From Escherichia phage vB_EcoM_VR26: DNA of 64,000 bases. The position numbers and the translations under genes were made by a program. Location: sequence record NC_028957.1. The stretch is one strand, 5' to 3'. Of the stretch, positions 5,219 to 59,855 are shown piece after piece. Numbering within the stretch: the first letter of the stretch is position 1; each line of letters begins with the position of its first letter. The notes beneath the pieces were generated by a model. That model ran no database searches. It was not told where the DNA came from and saw only the letters and a program-made list of their open reading frames with translations.

Positions 5219-5491
5219 CTATTTTAGATAAATTGCATATTTTTTATACCCAGCTGTCTCATGGCGGAGACCCTTGTCATTGGCAAAACGCTCAATGTTA
5301 TTAATTTGGTTCTGGTCAAGTTCAGAGATGTCAAACGCGAAAAAGTTGCGTTTGTTACCAATTGTTATATGGTCAGTTAAGTCAATGCTGTACAGGTGAT
5401 TGATATTGTCAATCATAGCTTTGACTGCTTTACTAATTTTTACTTCTTCATTCAGTTGGGACTCGTTGAAAAGTTCATTAAAAGTTTTCAT
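5219..5491 (-). CDS. internal head protein-like, with capsid-targeting sequence
   Basis: N-terminus MKTFNELFNE; 90 aa. Confidence 0.55.
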   Translation of the reverse strand: MKTFNELFNESQLNEEVKISKAVKAMIDNINHLYSIDLTDHITIGNKRNFFAFDISELDQNQINNIERFANDKGLRHETAGYKKYAIYLK

Positions 5492-5499
5492 AAGAAACC

Positions 5500-5832
5500 T
5501 TATTTATACAGTTTAGCTAGTTCTTTACGTCCGCGAGCAGACATAATGAATTGTTCATCACCAATTTTGAAATAAGCCATACCGCCGTCAACAGCGATGC
5601 CAATTTCTTTAGTACCTTCTTTGCCTTTCCACTTGCCACCAGATTTCAGGACAGCTTCAACTGCAGCTTTGGAATATTTGGACGTTTGAAAACGTTCATT
5701 ACCAATCTGAAAGAAAACACCATCTGCGTTTTTGGATAAACCAAATTTCAGAGAGCCTTCACTATCATCAATTGATTTGGTCTCATTGATGGCGGATTCG
5801 GCTAAAAACTCATTATAAGTCTTGATGTTCAT
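5500..5832 (-). CDS. internal head protein-like, with capsid-targeting sequence
   Basis: Start placed at the ATG at 5832 (MNIKTYNEFLAE) after a GGAG SD; the upstream ATG at 5865 sits inside the promoter -10. Confidence 0.55.
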   Translation of the reverse strand: MNIKTYNEFLAESAINETKSIDDSEGSLKFGLSKNADGVFFQIGNERFQTSKYSKAAVEAVLKSGGKWKGKEGTKEIGIAVDGGMAYFKIGDEQFIMSARGRKELAKLYK

Positions 5833-9213: not shown

Positions 9214-9241
9214 ATAGCCTCCTAATAAATATTGATATACT

Positions 9242-9249
9242 TATTTATA
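9242..9249 (-). promoter_or_regulatory. late promoter TATAAATA for gene 4
   Basis: Reverse strand reads TATAAATA about 28 nt upstream of the gene 4 ATG. Confidence 0.6.
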
Positions 9250-9261
9250 AATGGAGGCTTT

Positions 9262-9864
9262 ATGCTTTTTTCATTTTTTAACCCAATTGATTATGATGCT
9301 AAAACAATCAGAAAAAACCCTGCATCATTGACGAAAGAAGACGTCTTAAGCATTCCAATGACTGACATTTTCAGAAATTATCGTGCTTACTTTGATAAGG
9401 TCGCGGTCAATTATACACCAAAAACCTATTACATTGCCGGAGCTCCACGCCCGGAAGAATTAGCATATCAGCTATACGGCAACACTCAGCTCTATTGGGT
9501 TCTCCTTATGCTCAATGATATCTATGACCCGTATTATGGTTGGCTTTGTACCCAAGAAGCATCGTATCAAGCATCAATTCAGAAATATTCAAATGTCGGG
9601 GGCAATCAGGTCCTTTATCATGTGAACGAAAACGGTGAGAAGTTCTGGAACCTTGTTTCTTATCCTGATAATCCATACACCTGGTACGATAAAGGCGATA
9701 AAAACAAATTATATCCGCAATACGAAGGTCCATTAGCCGCAGTGGATATCTATGAAGATGCTATTCGCAAAAATGAATACAAACGAGAAATAAAGATAAT
9801 CGACCCTAACGATATCGAATCTTTTATTTCGGCGCTTATTCGTGAGATGGAGAAGTCGCTATGA
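9262..9864 (+). CDS. 53: gp53 baseplate wedge protein
   Basis: In-frame ATG at 9262 with GGAGG SD (the track start at 9232 is TTG); 200 aa; followed by gene 5. Confidence 0.85.
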   Translation: MLFSFFNPIDYDAKTIRKNPASLTKEDVLSIPMTDIFRNYRAYFDKVAVNYTPKTYYIAGAPRPEELAYQLYGNTQLYWVLLMLNDIYDPYYGWLCTQEASYQASIQKYSNVGGNQVLYHVNENGEKFWNLVSYPDNPYTWYDKGDKNKLYPQYEGPLAAVDIYEDAIRKNEYKREIKIIDPNDIESFISALIREMEKSL

Positions 9865-12135: not shown

Positions 12136-12429
12136 ATGGCTGGATTAAGTTTTAATCAATGTGTTACAGCAGGTCACGAAGCATGGCCACCGACTGTAAT
12201 CAATGCAACTCAAGGTAAAGTATTCACCGGGGGAATTCCTGTGTTAGTTGCCGGGGACCCTATTACCGAACATACCGAAATTAAAAAACCATATGAAACC
12301 CACGGTGGAGTAACACAACCAAGAACTCCGAAGGTATTTGTTACCGGTAAGAAAGCTGTTCAAATGGCGGACCCGATTTCATGTGGTGATACTGTGGCTC
12401 AAGCTTCAGGAAAGGTGTTCATAAAATGA
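12136..12429 (+). CDS. 5.4: gp5.4 PAAR-repeat spike-tip protein
   Basis: 97 aa, same length as T4 gp5.4; directly downstream of gene 5. Confidence 0.85.
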
Positions 12430-13103
12430 ACAAAGAATTTAATTTTGTATATGTAACTACAAACCTAGAAAATGGTAAAAAGTATATAGGCAAACATTCT
12501 ACTGATGATATGTTTGATGGATATTACGGTACAGGGGAGCTTATCAAAAAAGCTTATAAAAAATATGGAAAGGATTTGTTTGAGACAAAAATAATAAAAT
12601 TTTTTGATACTGAAGATGAGGCTTACGACTACGAAGAATTTTTAGTAGACGAATCTATAATTTATGATGATAGATATTATAATATAGATTTGGGTGGCAA
12701 AGGAAGTATGCGAGGAAGAAAGCATAAGGAATCTTCAAAGAAGCAAATATCAGACAAAATGAAGGGTAGGTCAAAGCCACCACGAAGTAAAGAATATATT
12801 GAAAATTTTGAAAAAGCTATGGCCAAAAGGAGAAAACCTAAGTCACCTCCTAAACCGAGGGTTTTTGTTAGAGGAGAAGAACATCCTTTATATAAAAGAC
12901 CCAGACCGCAATCTGTTATTGACCTATGTAAACTTAATAATAGAAAACACCCCATATGGCAATCATACGATATTTTATTCAAATTATGGAAAGAAAATGA
13001 TAAGCCAGGTTGGAGAAAAATGACCCGATTAGCCATTGAAAACGGATTTCCAAATACGGCTTATGATAAAATGATAAAACAATTTAAACAGGATTCAGAA
13101 TAA
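12426..13103 (+). CDS. GIY-YIG homing endonuclease (Seg-like)
   Basis: FVYVTTN...KYIGKHS GIY-YIG motif, Seg-like [21 protein letters not shown]3-like [12 protein letters not shown]; inserted between 5.4 and 6. Confidence 0.8.
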
Positions 13104-24141: not shown

Positions 24142-26310
24142 ATGATTAATAAACTCAGTCTCAAAGAACTGCCGTATAGCATCGGTATTCCAGACGAAGG
24201 TCAACAGAGAATTCGTTGGATACAAAACGGTGATTGTATGACTGCGGCCAGTACCAAATATGGTCATGATGGTAATTTGAACGCCGCCGCGGTTGGCGTT
24301 CAAACAAACGTAGATACACTCGACGACAACTCAAATACATCTAAAGAAAAAATCAATGAAATTATTGATAACGTCAATAATATCCAGGAAGCTTTGGATA
24401 TAACAACTAACACGGAAGTTGTTAAGCAAATTGAAAAAAACCGTACGGATATTCTTGACCTGGACGAACGTCAATTTAATACCGAATTGCTGTCAAGCGA
24501 AACATCAGAAGGTCTTAAAACGTTAAAGGAAGATGTTGGTGTTTATGACCCATTAACCGATTCATATTATCGCACTGTTCGTAATGACCTTGTATGGATT
24601 AAAAATGAATTAGGTCAGTATGTTGACCAAGATATAAATGGTCTACAGGTTATTGGTAATCCATCAAGAGGCATGAAACGTCGCATCATCGATAACAGTT
24701 CGGCTATTGTTGCTCATGGAGTTCGTATTAAGACTCTTGAGGATAATTACCATGATTCTGATGTTGGTTCTCTTAACGTAAAAGTAATTAAAATTCGCGA
24801 AGAATTGGGTGAGTCGACTTTAGCAGTAGGTAAACCAGCTGTATTTGTTCGACTGAATACTCTTGACGACAAAGTAGTCGAAATTGACAAAGATATTGCC
24901 AATATTCAAGAAGATATCGGTTTTGGCACCGGGCTTGCAATTACAACTCGCGTTGAAAATCTTGGTGGACGTGTTTCGGTCAATGAAACAGATATTGCGA
25001 ATATCAAACCAAGACTCACTAAGGTTGAAGCTGATATCGGCACCGCTCTGGAACCATTAACAATTAATGGTCGAATCAGTGCTTTGCGCTCGGATGTTAA
25101 TGGATTGCAGGCTGTTGTTGGTCAGGATTCAAGTTCAGGTTTGCGCGGAACCACTGCATGGCTTTCTCAGAGAATCGGTACAGAGCAATCTCCGGAGCCA
25201 AACACCATCACGTATAAGTTGAATGCAACCACTGCGCTGGCTAATGAAACTGTATCAGGTCTCCAGGATGTGCAGGCTGAAATTGGTACAAATAGCACTG
25301 GTATGAAAGGTTCTATTTTGACTTTAACTAGCCAGATGAACGGGACTAACCCTAACGGTGCTACTGTGGCTGAACGTGGTGTTCTTCCAGTCGTAATTAA
25401 CTTGGATATGTTGATGGCATCCAAGCTGAACGATGCACCGTTGGACAACAAGTTATACGGCCGCAAGCAAGGTGCCTGGTCTGAAATTATCGATTCCACA
25501 ACCGAAGTTGATGCAGTTAAAGCTTCATTGGTAACAACTGATGGACGCGTAACAACATTAACTGGTCGTGTCGATGATAATGATACAACAATCAGTTCGT
25601 TAGATACTCGTTATGGTGCATTGAACACTTCCGTTACGAATGTTAAGGCAGATGTTCTCGCTCTGCAAAATAAAGATACGGAACAAGATGGTCGAATTAC
25701 TGCATTAGAAACGAAGGATACGACTGTTGATGGTAAAATAACCGCATTGGAAACTAAAACATCTACGACCGATGATGATGTCACTGCTTTAGCTTTAGAC
25801 GTTAGCAATGTTGAAGGTGAGCTGGTTACCATTAAAGCAAATATCGAAACAAACAAAGGCGGTTTGGTAACCTTGACCGGTCGAATGACTTCGGCGGAAG
25901 GGGAAATCACTGCAATTAAACTCGATACTGCAAAAATTACACCGTTAACTGCTCGTGTTTCATCAAGTGAAAACGAAATCACTGCAATTAAACTCGATAC
26001 TGCAAAAATTGCGCCGCTAGACGAAAGAGTTACAACAGCTGAAGATGAAATCAATACGATTAAAATCGATACTGCAAAAATTGCACCGTTAACTACTCGT
26101 GTGACAACTCTTGAAGGTACAGTAACTCCGCTCCCTGGTCGCCTGGATGCAGCCGAGACGAAGATAACTACTTTAGAAGGTAAAGTATCAGCCTTAGAAA
26201 CGGAGCTCGCCAAAAGGCCTCCTGTCGCTCCTGTGGCTGATGGTCTCCCTTACGTGCTTGTTGATAATGCATGGGTTCTTTTGTCTACATTCGTGACTGT
26301 TGGACCATAA
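24142..26310 (+). CDS. wac: fibritin (wac) neck whisker, extended coiled coil
   Basis: 722 aa (T4 wac about 487 as recalled); heptad-rich coiled coil; C-terminal foldon-like ...AWVLLSTFV. Confidence 0.85.
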   Translation: MINKLSLKELPYSIGIPDEGQQRIRWIQNGDCMTAASTKYGHDGNLNAAAVGVQTNVDTLDDNSNTSKEKINEIIDNVNNIQEALDITTNTEVVKQIEKNRTDILDLDERQFNTELLSSETSEGLKTLKEDVGVYDPLTDSYYRTVRNDLVWIKNELGQYVDQDINGLQVIGNPSRGMKRRIIDNSSAIVAHGVRIKTLEDNYHDSDVGSLNVKVIKIREELGESTLAVGKPAVFVRLNTLDDKVVEIDKDIANIQEDIGFGTGLAITTRVENLGGRVSVNETDIANIKPRLTKVEADIGTALEPLTINGRISALRSDVNGLQAVVGQDSSSGLRGTTAWLSQRIGTEQSPEPNTITYKLNATTALANETVSGLQDVQAEIGTNSTGMKGSILTLTSQMNGTNPNGATVAERGVLPVVINLDMLMASKLNDAPLDNKLYGRKQGAWSEIIDSTTEVDAVKASLVTTDGRVTTLTGRVDDNDTTISSLDTRYGALNTSVTNVKADVLALQNKDTEQDGRITALETKDTTVDGKITALETKTSTTDDDVTALALDVSNVEGELVTIKANIETNKGGLVTLTGRMTSAEGEITAIKLDTAKITPLTARVSSSENEITAIKLDTAKIAPLDERVTTAEDEINTIKIDTAKIAPLTTRVTTLEGTVTPLPGRLDAAETKITTLEGKVSALETELAKRPPVAPVADGLPYVLVDNAWVLLSTFVTVGP
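25903..26118 (+). repeat. three tandem 72-bp repeats inside wac
   Basis: Units at 25903, 25975 and 26047 all begin GAAATCA...; the first 36 nt of units 1 and 2 are identical; each encodes EIT/NAIKLDTAKIAPL. Confidence 0.8.
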
Positions 26311-26311
26311 C

Positions 26312-26334
26312 AAAAGGGCTTCGGCCCTTTTTTC
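26312..26334 (+). terminator. rho-independent terminator after wac
   Basis: AAAGGGC TTCG GCCCTTT followed by TTT. Confidence 0.7.
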
Positions 26335-26335
26335 G

Positions 26336-26343
26336 TATAAATA
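26336..26343 (+). promoter_or_regulatory. late promoter TATAAATA for gene 13
   Basis: Exact TATAAATA about 19 nt upstream of the gene 13 ATG. Confidence 0.65.
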
Positions 26344-26361
26344 CAGTAAAGAGGAAAACAT

Positions 26362-27300
26362 ATGGCAACTGAATCATACAACCCGAAACAATTAAAAGAT
26401 GCAATCCTTCGTCGTCTTGGTGCTCCAATCACGAATATCGAAGTTACGACCGACCAAGTCTATGATTGCATCCAGCGTGCATTAGAATTATACGGTGAAT
26501 ATCATTATAATGGATATAACAAAGGTTATCAGGCTTTTTATATCGGTCATGATGAAGTTTCACAACAGAAATTCCGCGATGGTGTTTTCGATTTAAAAGG
26601 ACGTAATATTTTTGCAGTAACGCAGATTATTCGTACTAACGTCGGTTCATTAACTTCAATGGACGGACAAGCCACATATCCATGGTTTACAGATTTCGTT
26701 CTGGGCCTTGCCGGGATTAACGGTGGGATGGGTAGCTCGTGTAATAGCTTTGGTCCAAATGCTTTTGGTGCAGACCTTGGTTATTTTACACAGCTTATGC
26801 AATATCGTTCAATGATGCAAGACCTGATGGTTCCGCTTCCGGATTACTGGTATAACGATGATACCGAACAACTTAAAATTATGGGCAACTTCCGTCAGGG
26901 GGATGTGATTGTAATTGAAGTTTATACCAAATCGTATAACGGTGTGGATTCAATGGTTGGCAATACAGCTGGTTATGGTTTTGCCTCGGCTGATTGTGAT
27001 AATCCGTGGAATGCCGGTGCACAGTGGGATAACCCGGCGCGCAGAATAAGCGGTATGAGAGCTGGTGAGGACCTTGGACTTCAAGATGGTGCATACAACA
27101 ACCGTTGGGTGAAAGACTATGCCACGGCGCTTGTTAAGGAAGTTAACGGCAACGTATTGGCTAAACACCAAGGGATGATGATGCCAGGTGGAGTTACGGT
27201 CGATGGTGTTCGTTTAATCGAAGAAGCTCGTATGGAAAAAGAACGTCTCCGCGAAGAACTTGACCTGCTGGATGCACCGACTCCTATATTGGTGGGCTAA
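26362..27300 (+). CDS. 13: gp13 neck protein
   Basis: 312 aa; synteny. Confidence 0.9.
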
Positions 27301-27935
27301 TGGCTACATATTATAGACTTTATGTGTCGACATTTGAAACATCTAATGGGGTAATGGTGTATGGCGGTAAACGTCATTCACCATATGAAGATTTTAAAGC
27401 AGATAGTTATTTTGGGTCGGGTACTATTGTTAAACGAGCTAAACAAAAATATGGAAGAAAATGTTTAGTCGATATTACCTGGTCTAAACCTTTTGAATCC
27501 CCTGCTCTATTAAAGGAAGCCGAGGCTTTACTAGTCAGTGAACTTTTAGAAAGTTTTGATAATTGTGCAAATTTACACCCAACAGGGGGAGGTGGCCCGG
27601 AAGGTTATAGTCGTCCAGAAGATTCCCCTGCTTTTGGTAAAAAGAGAACAGCAGAATCAAGAAAACGAATGTCGGAAGCCGCAAAACAAAGGGAATGGTC
27701 CGAAGAGGGATTAAAACGTCGTAAAGAGGCAACAGCTCGAATGTGGATTGATTTTAAGGACCGACATCCTGATTTTTCTGATGATAAAAATCCGGCCGCA
27801 CGTAAAATTATTACCGGCGACCTAGAATTTTGTACCGGAAGAAAATGTGCAGAATATTATTCGATAACTCCGGCTGCAGTCATTTACAGATGTAAAAGTA
27901 CAGCCGAAAAATGGAAATTATGGAATTATGCGTAA
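27300..27935 (+). CDS. Seg-like GIY-YIG homing endonuclease, degenerate motif
   Basis: YRLYV...[26 protein letters not shown] and NUMOD3-like [13 protein letters not shown] parallel the 12426 ORF; inserted between 13 and 14. Confidence 0.65.
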
Positions 27936-49046: not shown

Positions 49047-49725
49047 AATTTAAACGAATAAAAGATGAGTTACGTGTTTCACGAATAAGAATGGAACCGT
49101 CACGATTGATATAGTAAATCAAACTAAACAATGTTTGGTGTGCGCTTGCATGAGTAAAAGAAGTAGGGCGTTCTTTCCAGTCTGGGGTCTCTTTAATCCA
49201 CTGGTAAATCCACCAAGGGAGAGTACAATATCCAGGAGCTTTGCCCAGCATAAGCAGATTGGGGCTAAAATTTTTAGGCAGTGTAAATTTAGGAGTTTCA
49301 GCTTCGATGATTTGAGCGACAGCTTCTTCAAAGTCTTCGGAAACAAACGGCACTTCAATTTCAACGAGTTTAACTTCTGATTCAGGGACAACTTCCTGGG
49401 TAACTTCGACTACTTCAACGGGTGCTTCTGGAGCATCAAACAAAAGAACAGCTTCAGGTTTAGCTGATTCTTCACCTTCAAACTTACTACCTGATAATTC
49501 ATCATCGGCATTAATAAGGTCGGTGATGCTTAAGCCTTCGTTATCGTCCGGCATAGGCATGTCAGCAAATGCTTTAAGTCCTGCTTCCAGGTCAATCAAC
49601 ATATTATCGAAAGTTTTTGTTTTCTTAACATCAACACCAAGCGATGATGCATATTCAGCTAATTTTTCTTTGGCTTCTTTTTTCTCGAGGATACGAATTT
49701 CCTCAATATAGTTCTTGTCAATCAT
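49045..49725 (-). CDS. inh: Inh-like protein (prohead protease inhibitor position)
   Basis: 226 aa, acidic; C-terminal region PGYCTLPWWIYQWIKETPDWK resembles the Hoc C-terminal domain. Confidence 0.6.
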   Translation of the reverse strand: MIDKNYIEEIRILEKKEAKEKLAEYASSLGVDVKKTKTFDNMLIDLEAGLKAFADMPMPDDNEGLSITDLINADDELSGSKFEGEESAKPEAVLLFDAPEAPVEVVEVTQEVVPESEVKLVEIEVPFVSEDFEEAVAQIIEAETPKFTLPKNFSPNLLMLGKAPGYCTLPWWIYQWIKETPDWKERPTSFTHASAHQTLFSLIYYINRDGSILIRETRNSSFIRLN

Positions 49726-49743
49726 GATGAACCTCGGTTAGTA

Positions 49744-49751
49744 TATAAATA
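49744..49751 (+). promoter_or_regulatory. late promoter TATAAATA for uvsW
   Basis: Exact TATAAATA about 28 nt upstream of the uvsW ATG. Confidence 0.6.
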
Positions 49752-49779
49752 TAGATATATTTATTACCTTGGAATCATC

Positions 49780-51279
49780 ATGGATATCAAAATCAACTTT
49801 TTAAATTTTAGTCATGTACATGTTGAATGTGAAGATAGTATCTTCTATGAACTCCGTGACTATTTCAGTTTTGAAGCCGAAAACTATCGGTTTAACCCTA
49901 AATTCAAAGCGGGAGTTTGGGACGGACGTATCCGTCTCCTGGATTATAACCGTAAATTACCGTACGGCTTAGTTAACCAGATTAAAAAATTCGCTGACCA
50001 GTTTGGTTATTCATTTTGGATTGACCCTCAAATCACCGAGAAAGAGGAAATCTCCCGTGTGGATTTCGATAAATGGGTCGAGTCAAAAGAAATCTATTCA
50101 GGCCATACCAAGATTACTCCCCATTGGTACCAAACAGACGCCGTATACGATGGTCTGGTCAACAGAAGAAAGATATTGAACTTACCTACGTCTGCAGGTA
50201 AAAGCCTCATCCAGGCGCTTCTGGCGCGATATTATCTCGAGAACTATGAAGGCAAGGTTCTTATCCTTGTACCTACAACTGCGCTCGTTGACCAGATGAT
50301 TAATGACTTTGTTGATTATAGATTGTTCCCTCGAGAAGCTTGTCTCGGTATCCGTTCCGGAACTAAACGTGATTCGGATGCAATGATTTATGTGTCTACT
50401 TATCAGACGGCAGTAAAACAACCTAAAGAATGGTTTTCACAGTTCGGTCAGTTTATGAATGATGAATGCCATATGGCTACTGGTAAATCTATTTCGACTG
50501 TTATCGAAGGCCTGACTAATTGTATGTTTAAATTTGGTCTCTCTGGTTCTCTCCGTGACGGCAAAGCAAACCTTATGCAATATATGGGTCTGTTTGGTGA
50601 TATCTTTAAACCAGTATCCACATCCCAATTAATGGATGAAGGACAAGTTACTGACCTTAAGATAAATAGTATTTTCCTTCGATATCCTGATGAATTCACC
50701 GTTAAAATGAAAGGCAAATCTTATCAAGATGAAATCAAGGTAATTACAAAAGCTACGCGTAGAAATAAATGGGTAACAAACCTTGCACTCAAGCTTGCTA
50801 AAAAAGATGAAAACGTCTTTTTGATGTTTAAGAATATCGAGCACGGTAAATCGATGTTTGAAATGCTTAAGGAAGCTGGTCATGAGAATGTGTATTATGT
50901 TTCCGGGGAAGTTGATACAGAAACACGTAACGCATTAAAGGTCATGGCAGAAAATGGAAAGGGAATTATCGTTGTAGCTTCATACGGTGTATTCTCGACG
51001 GGGATTTCCGTTAAAAACCTCCATCATATTATTTTCGCTCATCCGGTCAAGTCAAAGGTAATTGTACTCCAGACAATTGGTCGTGTACTTCGAAAACATG
51101 AATCCAAATCGACCGCAAACGTGTGGGACATCGTGGACGACATGGGGGTTAAACCCAAATCAGCAAACGCTAAAAAGAAATATGTTCACTTGAACTTTGC
51201 ACTGAAACATGCATTAGAGCGTATTCAGCGGTATGCAGACGAAAAATTCAATTATATCATTAAACAGGTGGAAATATAA
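49780..51279 (+). CDS. uvsW: UvsW DNA/RNA helicase
   Basis: 499 aa; Walker A PTSAGKS, DECH box, C-terminal helicase motifs. Confidence 0.9.
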   Translation: MDIKINFLNFSHVHVECEDSIFYELRDYFSFEAENYRFNPKFKAGVWDGRIRLLDYNRKLPYGLVNQIKKFADQFGYSFWIDPQITEKEEISRVDFDKWVESKEIYSGHTKITPHWYQTDAVYDGLVNRRKILNLPTSAGKSLIQALLARYYLENYEGKVLILVPTTALVDQMINDFVDYRLFPREACLGIRSGTKRDSDAMIYVSTYQTAVKQPKEWFSQFGQFMNDECHMATGKSISTVIEGLTNCMFKFGLSGSLRDGKANLMQYMGLFGDIFKPVSTSQLMDEGQVTDLKINSIFLRYPDEFTVKMKGKSYQDEIKVITKATRRNKWVTNLALKLAKKDENVFLMFKNIEHGKSMFEMLKEAGHENVYYVSGEVDTETRNALKVMAENGKGIIVVASYGVFSTGISVKNLHHIIFAHPVKSKVIVLQTIGRVLRKHESKSTANVWDIVDDMGVKPKSANAKKKYVHLNFALKHALERIQRYADEKFNYIIKQVEI

Positions 51280-52555: not shown

Positions 52556-52593
52556 GGTCTAGAACCATTATACAGCCATAAAATTAAAGCATT
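52556..52593 (-). promoter_or_regulatory. MotA-box middle promoter upstream of uvsY
   Basis: Reverse strand reads AATGCTTTA, 12 nt, TATAAT, then GGTTCTAGACC. Confidence 0.6.
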
Positions 52594-52981
52594 AACCGTT
52601 TTGACTTAACTGAATCCTGATTTGTTCGAGGGTGTCAGGGTCATCAACAATGCTGAACTGAACCGTTACGATGATGGAGTTATCATCATACATAGGGACA
52701 ACCGCAACCTGCAGATTGCTTATCCTTGGTTCAAAGTTCCGCACAGCGGAGACGATGTTGCGTTTAATGGTATCTGTGATTAATGGTGTGATATTCTCAA
52801 AAAGCTGATTACTTATATCACATCCAAATTCAGGCATAAAAGGCCTTGACCCTTTTCTTGTGGTGATTATTCCCAGAAGACTGTTCTTAACAGACCTTGC
52901 ACCAGTTACTTTAGCAACGTCTTTATCCCAACTTGTAGATAAGTCGGGAGACACATCGCTATACATTTTGTTTATATTCAT
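52592..52981 (-). CDS. 25: gp25 baseplate wedge protein
   Basis: 129 aa; synteny. Confidence 0.9.
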   Translation of the reverse strand: MNINKMYSDVSPDLSTSWDKDVAKVTGARSVKNSLLGIITTRKGSRPFMPEFGCDISNQLFENITPLITDTIKRNIVSAVRNFEPRISNLQVAVVPMYDDNSIIVTVQFSIVDDPDTLEQIRIQLSQNG

Positions 52982-53605
52982 TTACATAAACTTAAAGAAT
53001 TCTTTAAGCCCCTTAATTACATGGACAGAATGCGCTCCACACTCACAAGAGATAGGAATAGCCATTTGGACCTGTGGCTTGAGAAGTTCTTCCGTTAGTG
53101 CATTGATATCATCGAGGGTAATTGCATTGTACAGGTCCTCGATTTCGGCCTCATTTAAGTCATCAACAACGATGCGCTCGCCGCCTTCCGTGATAATATA
53201 TTCAATGCAACAAGCAATCATTTTTCCTTTATCACCGTCTTCAAACAGTCCAGGATAACGGAATTTAATTTTAAACGACCCGAAATCACGAATAACTTCA
53301 GACTCGTCCACGATGCTCGCGCGGCTTATTGTCACAGGAATGTCTTGTTCCTTTCCGCACTCACATACCCATGTATGCTCGACGTTAACAGCTCCGAGAC
53401 TATTTGCCCAGAGATTAATAAGAAGCAACTCGGCTTCCTGTTTGTTTAACCCTTTAGCATCAGTGCATTTATTAAGCAGTTCAATTATTGCAGGTTCCAT
53501 ACGCTTTTCTAATTTTGCCTGAAGCAAATCTTTATATTCGCGCAAGGTAAAAGCCCTACAATTTATAGTTTTATTTTTAATTTGGACAATAAATTCATAA
53601 GTCAT
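52982..53605 (-). CDS. 26: gp26 baseplate hub protein
   Basis: Start placed at the ATG at 53605 with AGGAG SD (the track start at 53638 is TTG); 207 aa. Confidence 0.8.
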   Translation of the reverse strand: MTYEFIVQIKNKTINCRAFTLREYKDLLQAKLEKRMEPAIIELLNKCTDAKGLNKQEAELLLINLWANSLGAVNVEHTWVCECGKEQDIPVTISRASIVDESEVIRDFGSFKIKFRYPGLFEDGDKGKMIACCIEYIITEGGERIVVDDLNEAEIEDLYNAITLDDINALTEELLKPQVQMAIPISCECGAHSVHVIKGLKEFFKFM

Positions 53606-53622
53606 AATTTGCTCCTTTACTG

Positions 53623-53630
53623 TATTTATA
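53623..53630 (-). promoter_or_regulatory. late promoter TATAAATA for gene 26
   Basis: Reverse-strand half of the palindrome TATTTATAAATA. Confidence 0.6.
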
Positions 53631-53634
53631 AATA
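53627..53634 (+). promoter_or_regulatory. late promoter TATAAATA for gene 51
   Basis: Forward-strand half of the palindrome TATTTATAAATA, about 25 nt upstream of the gene 51 ATG. Confidence 0.6.
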
Positions 53635-53658
53635 TCAATAAAGATAAAAGGGGATTCT

Positions 53659-54411
53659 ATGGCCAATATCGTAAGATGTGAAATGCCAGACGGAGTTCAT
53701 CGTTTCAAACCGTTTACAGTCGCTGATTACCGTGATTTACTGCTTGTGCGAAACGACATGAACAACAAACCCGTCGAAGAACAAAAACAATTATTAGACG
53801 AACTGTTGGAAGATTATTTTGGAGAATATCCGAAAGCATGGAGACCTTACATATTCCTGAAGGTATTCACTTCCTCTATCGGTAAGACAAAAGTCCCGGT
53901 AGCGTTCGAATGTCAAAAATGTAAAAAGACAAAGCAGACTTTGTTTAACATGAGTCAAGGCCCATTGATAAATCCAACGATGGAAACTGCCGGGATAAAA
54001 ATACAATTTAAGTTCCCTGAAGTGGAATATAAAGATAAGTCGGAGCTTGTTCTAAACACCATCCAGACTGTCGAAGACTCGGAACAAAAGTACAATTGGG
54101 AAGACCTCCCTGAAGAAACGAAGATGCAAGTTATCGATGCAATTGATATAGAAAGTCTCGAAGAGCTCCTTAAGAAAATGCACTCGATTTATCTTCCATT
54201 TACATATGGTTGCTGCGAAAAACACAAAACCGAATATACAGACTTGATTGATGTCTTTAAGCTTATCCTTAACCCGGATGAAGTCTTTGTATTTTATCAA
54301 ATTAACCACTTGCTGGTAAAGAACCAATATACGCTGGATAGCATCATGCACATGATTCCTATTGAACGAGGTATTGCTTTATCACTAGTTGAGAAGGACT
54401 TGAAAAAATGA
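53659..54411 (+). CDS. 51: gp51 baseplate hub assembly catalyst
   Basis: 250 aa; synteny. Confidence 0.85.
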
Positions 54412-55577
54412 CAGTTAAATCTATGCAGCGTGAAGGCTTTCCTAATATCAGCATCCGCCTTTATGAAGATTATGATGCGTGGCTTGAACACCGTTTTGTA
54501 GAACTAGCCGCCACCTTTACAACGTTAACCATGCGTGATTCCCTTTATGGAAGAAACGAGGGGTTGTTGCAATTCTACGATACGAAAAACCTGCATACAA
54601 AAATGAATGGTGAACAGGTTATTCAGATTTCTGTTAAGAATGCCAACTCTGACCGAACCCAATCCAGAATATATGGAAGCAAACACTTTGCAGTTTCTGT
54701 GGATTCAAAGGGTGATAACATAATTACAATTCAACTGGCACCTATTCACGAAATTGAAGACCTGAAATTTAGTCGTATGTTTTACCCGAGTGTACAAGAA
54801 ACATTAGTCGAAATGACCGGGGTAATTTATCAAGACAGGCCCTTACTTGCTCCTCCTATAAACGGAATCAACGTTTATGCTCCTAATGTTCCATGGTGTG
54901 ATTCGATGAACCAATATATGGAATTCATAAGGGAAGTGGGTCTTGCAGTTGAGTCTGATAAATTTGTATTTGTGTGGGAAGATATTGATGGCATCAGTAT
55001 CCAGGATTATGAGTGGTTAACTGCACAAGAGCCAATTAACTTTGTCGTAGGGGAACCTCGATTGATTGGTCAGTTTGTGCAAAACCTCGATGCTCCGTTA
55101 GCCTTCGATTTTGAATGGTTAACAAAGGCAAACCAACACACAAGAAAACCATATGAAAACGCAACCGTGTATGCGCATTCATTCCTTGACAAGAACGCAA
55201 CCAGAATAACTTTTGGGGAAGGTCAAAACAGTATTCTGGTATCTCGTTCCGGGGGCTATTCGGATTACACGTACCGAAATGGTTTCGAGGAAGCACAACG
55301 ATTAATAACCATGTCTCAGTATGACGGTTACGCACATTGCAAAACGTACGGGAACTTTGAATTAACCCCGGGTGATAAGATAAATTTCTTTGACCCTAAG
55401 AACCAATTCAAATATGATTTTTACGTAGACGAAGTTATTCATGAAGTGAGTAACAATACATCAATTACAAACCTCTATATGTTTACCAATGGTAAGCCTA
55501 TCGAAGTTGAAGAACCACCGAAGGTTAAAAATGAACTTAAAACTGATTCTGCCGACGAAGAAAATACAGCTGGGTGA
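54408..55577 (+). CDS. 27: gp27 baseplate hub protein
   Basis: 389 aa; synteny. Confidence 0.9.
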
Positions 55578-56049
55578 TAAAGAGATTCATGTACCCAAGC
55601 TTGGGCTTAAGCATCACAATCTGATTAAAAACGAGGCCAACCCTTACGCTGCATTAAGAAAGGTTATGCAATCGATATTCCCTAATCTTACAGCAGCCGA
55701 ATCCGACTTTGTATCCTTACATCTTCTGGAATTCAATGGTAAGCTAAAAGACAAACGCGAGATTAACGGATTTACATATAAGCTGGATGATGTTTATATC
55801 TGTCAACGTCTTGAATTCTCTTATCAAGGAAAGACATTTAAATTCCGCTCGAATAAACCGTATGAAGAATTTGGGCCAGTTGACAATCTTCTGGAGACTC
55901 TTTATCTCGGGGAAGATGTTCCAGACTTTCTGGATATGCCTGCTTTTGTTGCTAAGTGGGCAGACGATATCACAAGCACATTAGCAATCCCGGGCCCGAA
56001 TGGTCCTGTTAAGGGGTTACTGAAAATAATGGAACTCCTAAATGAATAA
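55531..56049 (+). CDS. 28: gp28 baseplate hub distal subunit
   Basis: Start set at the ATG at 55531 (AAGG SD); 172 aa; overlaps the gene 27 end. Confidence 0.8.
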
Positions 56050-57787
56050 GAACTCCGAACAAACGAGCTTCAGACGCGGTGGACCGAATAAAAAGCTTAT
56101 CGAAGAATTAGCACCACAAAGGAGGGCGGAAGCCCTCTCTGCTGAACAGAATGATGAACTATCGAATCTGAATACGACTCTTACAAATACTCAGGCTGCG
56201 ACCGAACTTGTATCGGAAGCTATTGAGGATAAGGGTAATCAGATTATCGAGAATATCCAAACCAATAATGGAGTCCTCCAGGATATCAGTGCTGGGGTCG
56301 AACTGACGGCTGAAGCCACCGAGAAGACTCAACAAGGGATTAAAAACCTCACGGATATTCTCTCGGATAAGCTCGACAAACTCAGTGCAATGATAAGCGG
56401 TAAAATAGGCGTCACGTCTCCTGTGGCTGGTTCTGAAAGCCTTAAACCCGTTGAGGATGCATTACCAGAGCCTGAAGAGAATAAGCCTACAGCGAGCGTT
56501 CCAGCGCTTATACCACCCGAAGAACAAAAGCCAGATGCAGACTTCATACCGGAACCGGAGCAGCCAAAGAATGATGCAGAAGGTAAAGAGACTAACACTT
56601 GGTCTCTCGGCGATAAGCTTGACACTCTTTCGAAGATAACCGAAAAAGGATTTAAGGCATCGGTTTCTGTAGCCGACCGAATCTCAGGGATGTTGTTCAA
56701 ATACACAATAACTGCGGCAGCTGAAGCAGCTAAATTAATAGGCGGATTATTGTTGTTGGTATTCGGCATCGATGCAATACGAGTTTACTTCCAGTATTTC
56801 ATGAAGCAATTCGAAAAAGGATGGGTCGAATTTAATGATAAGTTCAAAGAATGGGGGCCATTACTCGAAGGATTAATGACTTGGGCGAAGAATGCTGAAG
56901 CTATGTTTAGTGAAAGAAATTGGCTTGGCCTGGCAGAAGCTATTATCCGTGGAATGGTTAACTTAACGAAGAATATGGCTCAACTTCTTATGCTTGGTAT
57001 TTCAAAATTAATCTCGGCTATCTTAAGTAAAATCCCCGGGATGGGTGACCTAGCAGATAATGTGGAAGCCTCTGCGTTGATGTCTTATCAGCAAAACACG
57101 GGCGCAACCCTTGATGATGAAGACCAAACAAAGATAGCTAAGTATCATGATAAACGTTCGGCCGAAGCAATGAAAACTGCGGAGAAGATGAATAAGAAGT
57201 ATAAGGATAAACCTGAACTGATTAATCAAGCCGAAAAATATGGCAACCTTACCAAGGAACAAGCTGACCAGCTTCGTGCAGGTGGTATTGACACAAGCTT
57301 CAGAGACCTTCCAGAAGAAGAACGTCTGGACTATTTCAAGAAGCGTGATAAAACCCAAGCCGATATTATTCGTTTAACCCAGACTGCAGATAACTTAATG
57401 AAGCCAGATGCAACCGATAAAAAGAATGCTGAAGCCTCGTATAAAGCAATCCAGGAACAGTTGGCTGACCCGGTTATGTCAAAAGGTGGAGCTCCGAAAG
57501 ACCTTAATATGCGTGCTCTCCTGGAAAAACTCGATAAGTCTCTTGAGAAGTTCAAAGACGAACCGAAAGTTAAACCACCTGATGTTAAGACTTCTCCGGA
57601 CGCACAACAAGCCGCGAAGGTCGACGAAGGCATGAAGGCCAAAGAAAATAAATACAAGGATGCACCGGCTCAGGCACAAATTAACACGGTCAATAATATT
57701 CAGAAGACTTCAAGGACGCAATACAATATGCCTCCTCAAAGTTCAACCCCTGCCCCTGGCATGAGACAGGCCACGAGAATTAACTAA
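56042..57787 (+). CDS. 29: gp29 tail tape measure / baseplate hub protein
   Basis: 581 aa; central hydrophobic segment; synteny. Confidence 0.85.
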   Translation: MNKNSEQTSFRRGGPNKKLIEELAPQRRAEALSAEQNDELSNLNTTLTNTQAATELVSEAIEDKGNQIIENIQTNNGVLQDISAGVELTAEATEKTQQGIKNLTDILSDKLDKLSAMISGKIGVTSPVAGSESLKPVEDALPEPEENKPTASVPALIPPEEQKPDADFIPEPEQPKNDAEGKETNTWSLGDKLDTLSKITEKGFKASVSVADRISGMLFKYTITAAAEAAKLIGGLLLLVFGIDAIRVYFQYFMKQFEKGWVEFNDKFKEWGPLLEGLMTWAKNAEAMFSERNWLGLAEAIIRGMVNLTKNMAQLLMLGISKLISAILSKIPGMGDLADNVEASALMSYQQNTGATLDDEDQTKIAKYHDKRSAEAMKTAEKMNKKYKDKPELINQAEKYGNLTKEQADQLRAGGIDTSFRDLPEEERLDYFKKRDKTQADIIRLTQTADNLMKPDATDKKNAEASYKAIQEQLADPVMSKGGAPKDLNMRALLEKLDKSLEKFKDEPKVKPPDVKTSPDAQQAAKVDEGMKAKENKYKDAPAQAQINTVNNIQKTSRTQYNMPPQSSTPAPGMRQATRIN

Positions 57788-57795
57788 GGAATAAC

Positions 57796-58896
57796 ATGAA
57801 AGTAAAAGAACTCGATTTCGATTTAGATATTGCGGGTTTATTTAACGGAGGTTCTAAGACCTCCGCTGGGCAGTCAAAAGCTGCCCAGACTCAAGCTACT
57901 ATTGTGGCGCAATATCCAGCAGAACGAGCTTCCGGTAATGATTCTTCAGATGATATGCGAGTTAATGACCTTTATAAAAATGGTCTGTTATTCACGGCAT
58001 ACAATTTCAGTTCAAGAACATCTCCGGAATTACGCTCAGACCGGTCAAGCCAATTGACTTCATTAAAGAAAGTTTCCAATGGTGCTTCATTTAACCCAGT
58101 TAAAAGTTTAACATCTTTTGCTAAATCAAAATTAACCGGCTCCGGTTCAACAGGTAAAAGTTTTGATTCGAACGCTGTTGCAAATATCCTGTTGCCTCGT
58201 TCAAAGTCTGATGTAGAATCCGTATCGCATCGATTCAACGATGTTGGCGAATCTCTTATTACGAAAGGCGGCGGCTCAGCTACGGGTATTCTTAGTAACA
58301 TCGCATCGACCGCAGTTTTTGGCGCGCTCGAATCAGTTACAAACGGTGTAATGGCCGACCATGGCGAACAGATTTACACAACGGCAAGAAGCATGTATGC
58401 TGGTCCGGATAACAGGACAAAAGTTTACACATGGGAAATGACTCCACGTAGCGCGCAAGACTTAATCCAGATAGTGAAGATATACGAGATTTTCAACTAT
58501 TATTCTTATGGTGAAACCGGTAAAAGCTCCTTTGCTTCCGAGCTGAAAGATAAAATCGATACGTGGTATAAATCCACCTTCAAAAAGGAAGCAATCGATA
58601 ACTTTGACGGTAAGTTGCTCGGTGAAGAGATAACAAGCTTCTTAACGAACGTTCTGGTGGTCTCTAACCCTACTATCTGGTATATCCGTAACTTCGGTGA
58701 TACAAGCTCATACGATGGCCGTGGGGAGCTATTTGGGCCATGTCAGATTCAGAGCATAAGATTCGATAAATCTCCGGATGGTCATTTCGGTGGATTAGCT
58801 ATTGCTCCTAACCTGCCATCGACTTTTGTACTTGAAATCACTTTCCGTGAAATCATTACGCTTAACCGTGGCTCATTATATGCGGAAGGTTTCTAA
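57796..58896 (+). CDS. 48: gp48 baseplate tail-tube cap
   Basis: 366 aa; synteny. Confidence 0.9.
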   Translation: MKVKELDFDLDIAGLFNGGSKTSAGQSKAAQTQATIVAQYPAERASGNDSSDDMRVNDLYKNGLLFTAYNFSSRTSPELRSDRSSQLTSLKKVSNGASFNPVKSLTSFAKSKLTGSGSTGKSFDSNAVANILLPRSKSDVESVSHRFNDVGESLITKGGGSATGILSNIASTAVFGALESVTNGVMADHGEQIYTTARSMYAGPDNRTKVYTWEMTPRSAQDLIQIVKIYEIFNYYSYGETGKSSFASELKDKIDTWYKSTFKKEAIDNFDGKLLGEEITSFLTNVLVVSNPTIWYIRNFGDTSSYDGRGELFGPCQIQSIRFDKSPDGHFGGLAIAPNLPSTFVLEITFREIITLNRGSLYAEGF

Positions 58897-59855
58897 TGTT
58901 TACTTTACAAGAATTTCAAACACAAGCGATTAATATCGACTTGCAGAGGAATAACCTTTTTAGCGTGGTCTTCGCGACCGCGCCTTCCTCTAAATCTCAG
59001 AATCTTCTGGACCAGTTCGGTGGTGCATTATTCAGCAACCTTCCTGTTAACTCGGATTGGTTTGGTTTAACGCAAGGCGACTTAACCCAGGGAATAACAA
59101 CTCTTGTTACTGCAGGAACTCAAAAGCTTATTCGTAAATCAGGAATAAGCAAATATCTTATCGGGGCAATGAGTAACCGTGTTGTGCAATCATTATTAGG
59201 GGAATTTGAGGTTGGTACTTACCTGCTTGATTTCTTTAATATGGCTTATCCAACGGCCGGGCTATTAGTTCACTCCGTTAAGCTTCCGGACAACACATTG
59301 AACTACGAAATGGACCTTAACCATAACGCGCCAAATATCAAGATAACAGGGAGAGAATATTCTCCGTTGGTATTAAGCTTTAGAATGGATTCAGAGGCAG
59401 GGAACTTCAGAGCATTTAACGATTGGGTCAACTCTGTACAGGACCCAGTTACCCAGCTAAGGGCTTTGCCTGAAGATGTTGAAGCAGATATTCAGGTCAA
59501 CCTTCACTCACGTAATGGATTGCCACACACGGTTGTTATGTTAACTGGTTGTGTTCCTGTAAGTGTATCTGCACCTGAATTGAGTTATGAAGGGGATAAT
59601 CAGATAGCTACATTTGATGTGACTTTTGCTTATCGCGTTATGTCAACTGGGGCGGTGGGAAGAAATGCTGCATTAGAATGGTTAGAAGATAAGGTTATTA
59701 AGGGTGTATCTGGTATTAGTTCAGATAACAACTTGAACGCAGAAGTTGCCAAATTGAGTCGCCTGTCTGGTGCCCAATCTGGATTAACAAGTCTGTACAA
59801 TACGTTCACTGGTTCCGGGAGAGCAATCTCTGGTGGAAGTCAACGTATATTATAA
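58896..59855 (+). CDS. 54: gp54 baseplate tail-tube initiator
   Basis: 319 aa; synteny. Confidence 0.9.
   Translation: MFTLQEFQTQAINIDLQRNNLFSVVFATAPSSKSQNLLDQFGGALFSNLPVNSDWFGLTQGDLTQGITTLVTAGTQKLIRKSGISKYLIGAMSNRVVQSLLGEFEVGTYLLDFFNMAYPTAGLLVHSVKLPDNTLNYEMDLNHNAPNIKITGREYSPLVLSFRMDSEAGNFRAFNDWVNSVQDPVTQLRALPEDVEADIQVNLHSRNGLPHTVVMLTGCVPVSVSAPELSYEGDNQIATFDVTFAYRVMSTGAVGRNAALEWLEDKVIKGVSGISSDNNLNAEVAKLSRLSGAQSGLTSLYNTFTGSGRAISGGSQRIL

Follow-up and report, generated by a model that had tools for sequence, protein, structure and literature searches.

The 12-nt sequence TATTTATAAATA between the divergent genes 26 and 51 of Escherichia phage vB_EcoM_VR26, a perfect palindrome at positions 53623-53634 of the window (the whole 64,000-nt stretch of record NC_028957.1 that was analysed), is very probably a pair of gp55-dependent late promoters of the T4 type that stand back to back and overlap by 4 bp. 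The late motif TATAAATA occurs exactly within it on both strands, at 53627-53634 (+) and at 53630→53623 (-), and the central 4 bp TATA (53627-53630) are common to the two copies. We assign the + strand copy (53627..53634), placed at -13..-6, to P51, the putative late promoter of gene 51, and the - strand copy (53623..53630, read from 53630 to 53623) to P26, the putative late promoter of gene 26. The sequence-only reading had proposed a 12-nt palindrome with an exact late motif on each strand, at suitable distances from the starts of genes 26 and 51, acting as overlapping divergent late promoters; the sequence agrees with the first point, predicted leaders of 12 nt and 19 nt agree with the second, and all the sequence and comparative evidence laid out here backs the third.

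The late promoter of T4 is TATAAATA at -13..-6, without a -35 element and with A tolerated at -13 (PMC1524935, Nolan 2006; PMC2988020), and according to Geiduschek and Kassavetis activity in vivo has been demonstrated for only part of the listed T4 late sites (PMC2988020). At the junction of genes 26 and 51 (26|51) the 8-bp motif is present on both strands, there is no conserved -35 element, and a late-gene orthologue lies just downstream. The window shares 95-98% identity with VR7/SP18-like relatives of T4, genus Gaprivervirus, and its genes were named by transfer of the VR7 annotation (tblastn). They run in the order tRNA/internal-protein region, 57-1-3-2-4 | 53-5-...-24 ... inh | uvsW ... 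uvsY-25-26 | 51-27-28-29-48-54 | alt-30. VR7, the closest annotated relative (97% identical), encodes gp55, gp45 and gp44/62, whose counterparts in vB_EcoM_VR26 would lie outside the window.

Gene 26 (52982..53605, -; baseplate hub, with 100% identity to VR7 gp26 over residues 1-206) is the first gene of the leftward unit, and is abutted by gene 25 (52592..52981, -; baseplate wedge), which in T4 is translated from a 26-25 message. PMC3014915 cites literature according to which gene 25 of T-even phages is translated by way of an unusual arrangement of the ribosome-binding site where genes 26 and 25 meet, which fits a 26-25 message. On the other side gene 51 (53659..54411, +; hub assembly, its product 52% identical to T4 gp51) opens the rightward unit and is followed by the tightly packed genes 27, 28, 29, 48 and 54 (54408..59855, +), which are presumably co-transcribed from P51; no further exact TATAAATA was found on the + strand across these five genes (54408..59855).

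The divergent 26|51 spacer measures 53 nt, from the gene 26 ATG at 53605 (-) to the gene 51 ATG at 53659 (+), and the starts and leaders within it were derived by placing the motif at -13..-6. On the + strand this gives a predicted +1 at A53640 and a 19-nt gene 51 leader, AAAGATAAAAGGGGATTCT (53640..53658), containing the Shine-Dalgarno sequence AAGGGGA at 53648-53654. On the - strand it gives a predicted +1 at A53617 and a 12-nt gene 26 leader, 5'-AAGGAGCAAATT-3' (53606..53617), with the Shine-Dalgarno sequence at its extreme 5' end, beginning at +2/+3. For both P26 and P51 the predicted +1 is an A directly 5' of the Shine-Dalgarno sequence. The segment between box and start is TCAAT then A for P51 (4/5 A/T) and CAGTA then A for P26 (3/5 A/T), a composition for which no quantitative threshold exists. 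Both predicted leaders lie inside the range of the window's other TATAAATA sites; that of gene 26 is short, which counts against a reading with two promoters. An apparent MotA box, TTTGCTCC at 53608-53615, picked out by eye for its resemblance to the consensus, was rejected: its letters simply complement the Shine-Dalgarno sequence of gene 26, no -10 element stands at the right distance from it, and T4 lacks it, having AGCTCC instead.

The motif is abundant in the window and well placed there. We counted 21 occurrences of TATAAATA against 4.97 expected, an approximately four-fold enrichment, and none of 100 shuffles contained 21 or more. Most of these sites precede an orthologue of a T4 late gene (4, 9, 13, 18, 22, 24, uvsW, alt, 26 or 51) by 12-25 nt, on the correct strand. 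When the relevant strand was scanned over the approximately 300 nt that precede gene 26 and the approximately 260 nt that precede gene 51, the palindrome supplied the sole late-type motif with at most one mismatch, apart from the trivially overlapping TATCAATA. Could the palindrome instead be a chance product of an A/T-rich region, or a structural element of DNA or RNA such as a cruciform, a hairpin or a known RNA family? The region is indeed A/T-rich, and palindrome-like 12-mers with one mismatch allowed are not rare (2 observed in the window against 0.73 expected), but the exact 12-mer is expected only 0.02 times per window and was present in 2 of 100 dinucleotide shuffles. The spacer folds at -2.8 kcal/mol (z = -0.21), no better than shuffles, and it has no Rfam match at E <= 1. 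Conservation of the 12-mer across genera effectively refutes a chance or structural origin, which we regard as extremely improbable.

That conservation was measured in 63 loci with 32 distinct 26|51 spacers, 12 of the loci coming from annotated phages and 51 from IMG/VR contigs. The exact TATTTATAAATA is present in 29 of the 32, representing at least nine genera, and its annotated carriers are Gaprivervirus, Tequatrovirus (T4), Dhakavirus, Mosigvirus (RB69, PTK), Karamvirus, Jiaodavirus, Lazarusvirus (Acinetobacter), Bragavirus (Proteus) and Muldoonvirus (Cronobacter), with the identical 12-mer in T4, VR7, JS10, RB69/PTK, PG7, a Jiaodavirus, Acinetobacter phage Berthold, Proteus phage Pm5461 and Cronobacter phage VP8. 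Among these annotated carriers gp51 identity with the query goes down to 39%. In the distinct spacers the information content is only 0.1-0.45 bits at the four bases that flank the 12-mer on each side, and beyond these flanks only the +1 A's and the two Shine-Dalgarno sequences are conserved, with an A at the predicted +1 in 86% of the distinct spacers on the gene 26 side and in 90% on the gene 51 side. Leader lengths vary between lineages: that of gene 26 measures 11-17 nt in most of them and 25-28 nt in Acinetobacter phages, and that of gene 51 measures 10-19 nt. The exact 4-bp overlap of the motifs is retained even in spacers of 65-67 nt, which have room to separate them.

This retention, together with the perfect two-fold symmetry of the site, would also suit a dyad that is kept, additionally or alternatively, for the binding of a dimeric protein regulating both units. 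One candidate would be the phage protein DsbA, which is reported to bind weakly to A/T-rich sites overlapping two late promoters (PMC2988020). Against this, two opposed consensus promoters account for every conserved base, leaving only the +1 A and Shine-Dalgarno sequences conserved outside the 12-mer, and the other divergent late junctions of the window, 4|53 and inh|uvsW, have a different, non-palindromic layout. Since dsbA is moreover non-essential and its binding affinity micromolar, we consider a role as a protein-binding dyad, which nothing in the data calls for, very unlikely, and the site is better read as two opposed late promoters.

The chief ground for believing that both orientations are used lies in the bases TATT immediately 5' of the + strand TATAAATA. 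In the window TATT precedes none of the 19 other TATAAATA sites, so its invariance at the 26/51 junction must stem from selection on the - strand copy. The rival reading would be that one orientation only works, most plausibly P51, with the other TATAAATA a by-product of the palindrome and 26-25 transcribed from elsewhere. The very short predicted leader of gene 26 speaks for this, as does a sigma-70-like match at 53682→53654; such matches, however, occur at chance level (2 observed against 1.7 expected), for which reason a sigma-70 promoter was discarded as an explanation of the site. The one-orientation reading is also hard to reconcile with the invariance of the - copy in 29 of the 32 spacers, with the retention of the - strand +1 A in 86% of them, and with the lack of any other late-type motif within approximately 300 nt upstream of gene 26. 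The sigma-70-like match itself, TTCACA-17-TAGAAT (10/12; 53654-53682, -), lies at the start of gene 51 and is directed towards gene 26.

The exact palindrome is missing from two lineages that have the divergent 26|51 order, Krischvirus and Tulanevirus, and the arrangement is thus dispensable. The Krischvirus phages RB49 and JSE carry a 1-nt insertion (TATTT-T-ATAAATA, TATTTTATAAATA) that leaves the + copy intact and destroys the - copy, and the RB49 record (AJ489481; piece 1393-1560) has an annotated sigma-70 promoter with a perfect TTGACA-17-TATAAT, which lies within gene 51 and is directed towards gene 26; its position is not homologous to that of the sigma-70-like match in our window. In the late-promoter list of Nolan for RB49, the interval expected to hold the junction contains no overlapping +/- pair, and by our reading a lone + site is listed near the expected position. 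These data suggest that in Krischvirus the promoter of the 26-25 unit may have been replaced. That RB49 and JSE keep the + copy, lose the - copy and have a perfect sigma-70 promoter towards gene 26 could be taken as a point for a single working orientation; the loss of the - copy, however, coincides with a substitute promoter in RB49, which argues that phages with this copy require it. On balance, use of one orientation only seems very unlikely to us.

In Tulanevirus (Aeromonas phage AS-gz, piece 655-704, and two further loci) the junction holds a 10-nt palindrome, TATTTAAATA, which lacks the 2 bp at the centre of the 12-mer and reads TtTAAATA on each strand, the two copies overlapping by 6 bp. 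RB43-like and Slopekvirus phages have 51-26-25 on one strand, hence no divergent junction.

The closest known counterpart is found in T4 itself, where the same genes in the same divergent order flank an identical TATTTATAAATA at NC_000866.4 116450-116461, with predicted starts at 116467 (+) and 116444 (-). The T4 pair is orthologous to P26 and P51 in that the flanking divergent genes are the same and the two motifs have 4 bp in common, even though T4 belongs to another genus and the flanking spacer sequence is unlike that of vB_EcoM_VR26. The leaders are of similar length: in T4 that of gene 26 measures 16 nt and that of gene 51 measures 12 nt, and in vB_EcoM_VR26 the former is 4 nt shorter and the latter 7 nt longer. 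No promoter features are annotated at the 26/51 junction in the T4 records NC_000866 and AF158101. Scarlato et al. reportedly mapped in 1989 the transcripts of the T4 baseplate cluster and found them to be divergent, from overlapping promoters. In RB69 two late promoters have been predicted, Pl:118620 (+) and Pl:118672 (-) (Nolan et al. 2006, PMC1524935), which span the 26|51 spacer (118622-118670) with its palindrome at 118641-118652, and Proteus phage Pm5461 (KP890823) has two annotated 8-bp promoters with a 4-bp overlap at the 26/51 junction; both pairs are computational annotations, like the pair in vB_EcoM_VR26. A T4 dRNA-seq preprint reports 150 T4 start sites (bioRxiv 2024.04.04.588121).

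The 26/51 element thus appears to be an ordinary, already known and earlier-annotated pair of overlapping gp55-dependent late promoters. A reader of the raw sequence had correctly spotted a real regulatory element, and what was known of late transcription in T4 stands unchanged. Warman et al. reportedly described in 2021 bacterial sigma-70 promoters that work in both directions owing to the symmetry of their -10 element. These likewise have divergent starts from overlapping, near-palindromic elements of the -10 type and need no upstream element; unlike them, the site described here has an 8-bp gp55 motif, a 4-bp overlap and predicted starts 23 bp apart, and would employ a phage sigma with a sliding-clamp activator.

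If both promoters function as proposed, host RNA polymerase together with gp55 (the late sigma), gp33 and the sliding clamp gp45 would open the site in either orientation. With the + strand TATAAATA as non-template -13..-6, transcription would start at about A53640 and produce a 51-27-28-29-48-54 transcript; with the - strand TATAAATA it would start at about A53617 and produce a 26-25 transcript. In the cryo-EM structures of the T4 late open complex, the DNA is unwound from -12 to +2 and gp55 recognises the motif in the single-stranded form of the non-template strand; the gp45 clamp is at the upstream end of the complex, and its loading polarity matters (PMC7892883). Transposed to the palindrome, the melted regions would extend over 53628-53641 for P51 and 53629→53616 for P26, with 53628-53629 in both. 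Each complex would moreover cover the promoter and start of the other, the upstream DNA of one being the bubble and downstream DNA of the other. From these overlaps in bubbles and coverage, we infer that one polymerase at a time could be accommodated and that the two hub units would compete for the same 12 bp. Such an arrangement illustrates the compactness of T4-type late control, in which 12 bp would serve two baseplate-hub transcription units.

A more elaborate proposal is that selection keeps the exact 4-bp overlap itself. The dyad would then force strictly alternating use of a single site, one polymerase at a time, the polarity of the arriving gp45 clamp would set the direction, and the direction of replication or the strand of clamp loading would partition initiations between 26-25 and 51-27-28-29-48-54, thereby fixing their stoichiometry. 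We judge this to be very unlikely; the simpler reading, two opposed late promoters, is the one we prefer.

The sequence-only reading had seen a similar overlapping arrangement between genes 4 and 53, at 9242-9252. The sequence is real, a near-palindrome (TATTTATAAATG) that occupies 9242-9253, and its - copy is an exact TATAAATA (9249→9242) with a predicted +1 at 9236 and a 23-nt gene 4 leader. The overlapping form did not hold up, since the + copy is inexact and unconserved and the conserved layout is a crossed one. This + copy, TATAAATG at 9246-9253, has a predicted start just 3 nt short of the gene 53 ATG (9262), a point that is already past the Shine-Dalgarno sequence GGAGG, and is replaced by TATAAACA in T4 and by TATACTCG in JS98-like phages. 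The partner that is conserved, across 20 distinct 4|53 spacers, is (A/T)ATAAATA located 34-50 nt upstream of the ATG, represented in the window by AATAAATA at 9224-9231 (+) with a predicted +1 at 9237. The conserved layout at 4|53 (window 9214-9262) is therefore that of two putative crossed late promoters, non-overlapping and each with its motif within the other's leader, and the near-palindrome TATTTATAAATG is incidental.

A second crossed pair was observed at inh|uvsW (window 49725-49780), where TATAAATA at 49744-49751 (+) would serve uvsW and AATAAATA at 49765→49758 (-) would serve inh, with predicted starts at 49757 and 49752 and a 6-nt overlap; T4 has the same layout. These two junctions resemble 26|51 in that the same motif is used at a divergent junction of late genes and mutually exclusive occupancy is expected. 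They differ from it in that their motifs lie 6-11 bp apart, each in the other's leader, whereas those of 26|51 overlap, and in that their predicted starts stand side by side or with an overlap of a few nt (9236/9237; 49752/49757), whereas those of 26|51 are 23 bp apart. The crossed layout at other divergent late junctions, the near-invariance of the palindrome in at least nine genera and the sigma-70 promoter associated with loss of the leftward copy in RB49/JSE are modest comparative additions to what was known.

Some further features of the window were recorded along the way. An exact TATAAATA upstream of ip9 (window 5491-5508, -) lies 9 nt from the ATG, with a predicted leader of approximately 4 nt; either the start or processing of this transcript may differ, or the true start codon or promoter may be another one. 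Identity to VR7 is just 46-75% for several genes of the tail fibres and baseplate (9-12, wac), among neighbours above 97%. Gaps between VR7-mapped genes occur at 12429-13103 (5.4|6), 25785-26362 (wac|13) and 27300-27931 (13|14), and these indicate probable insertions or replacements relative to VR7.
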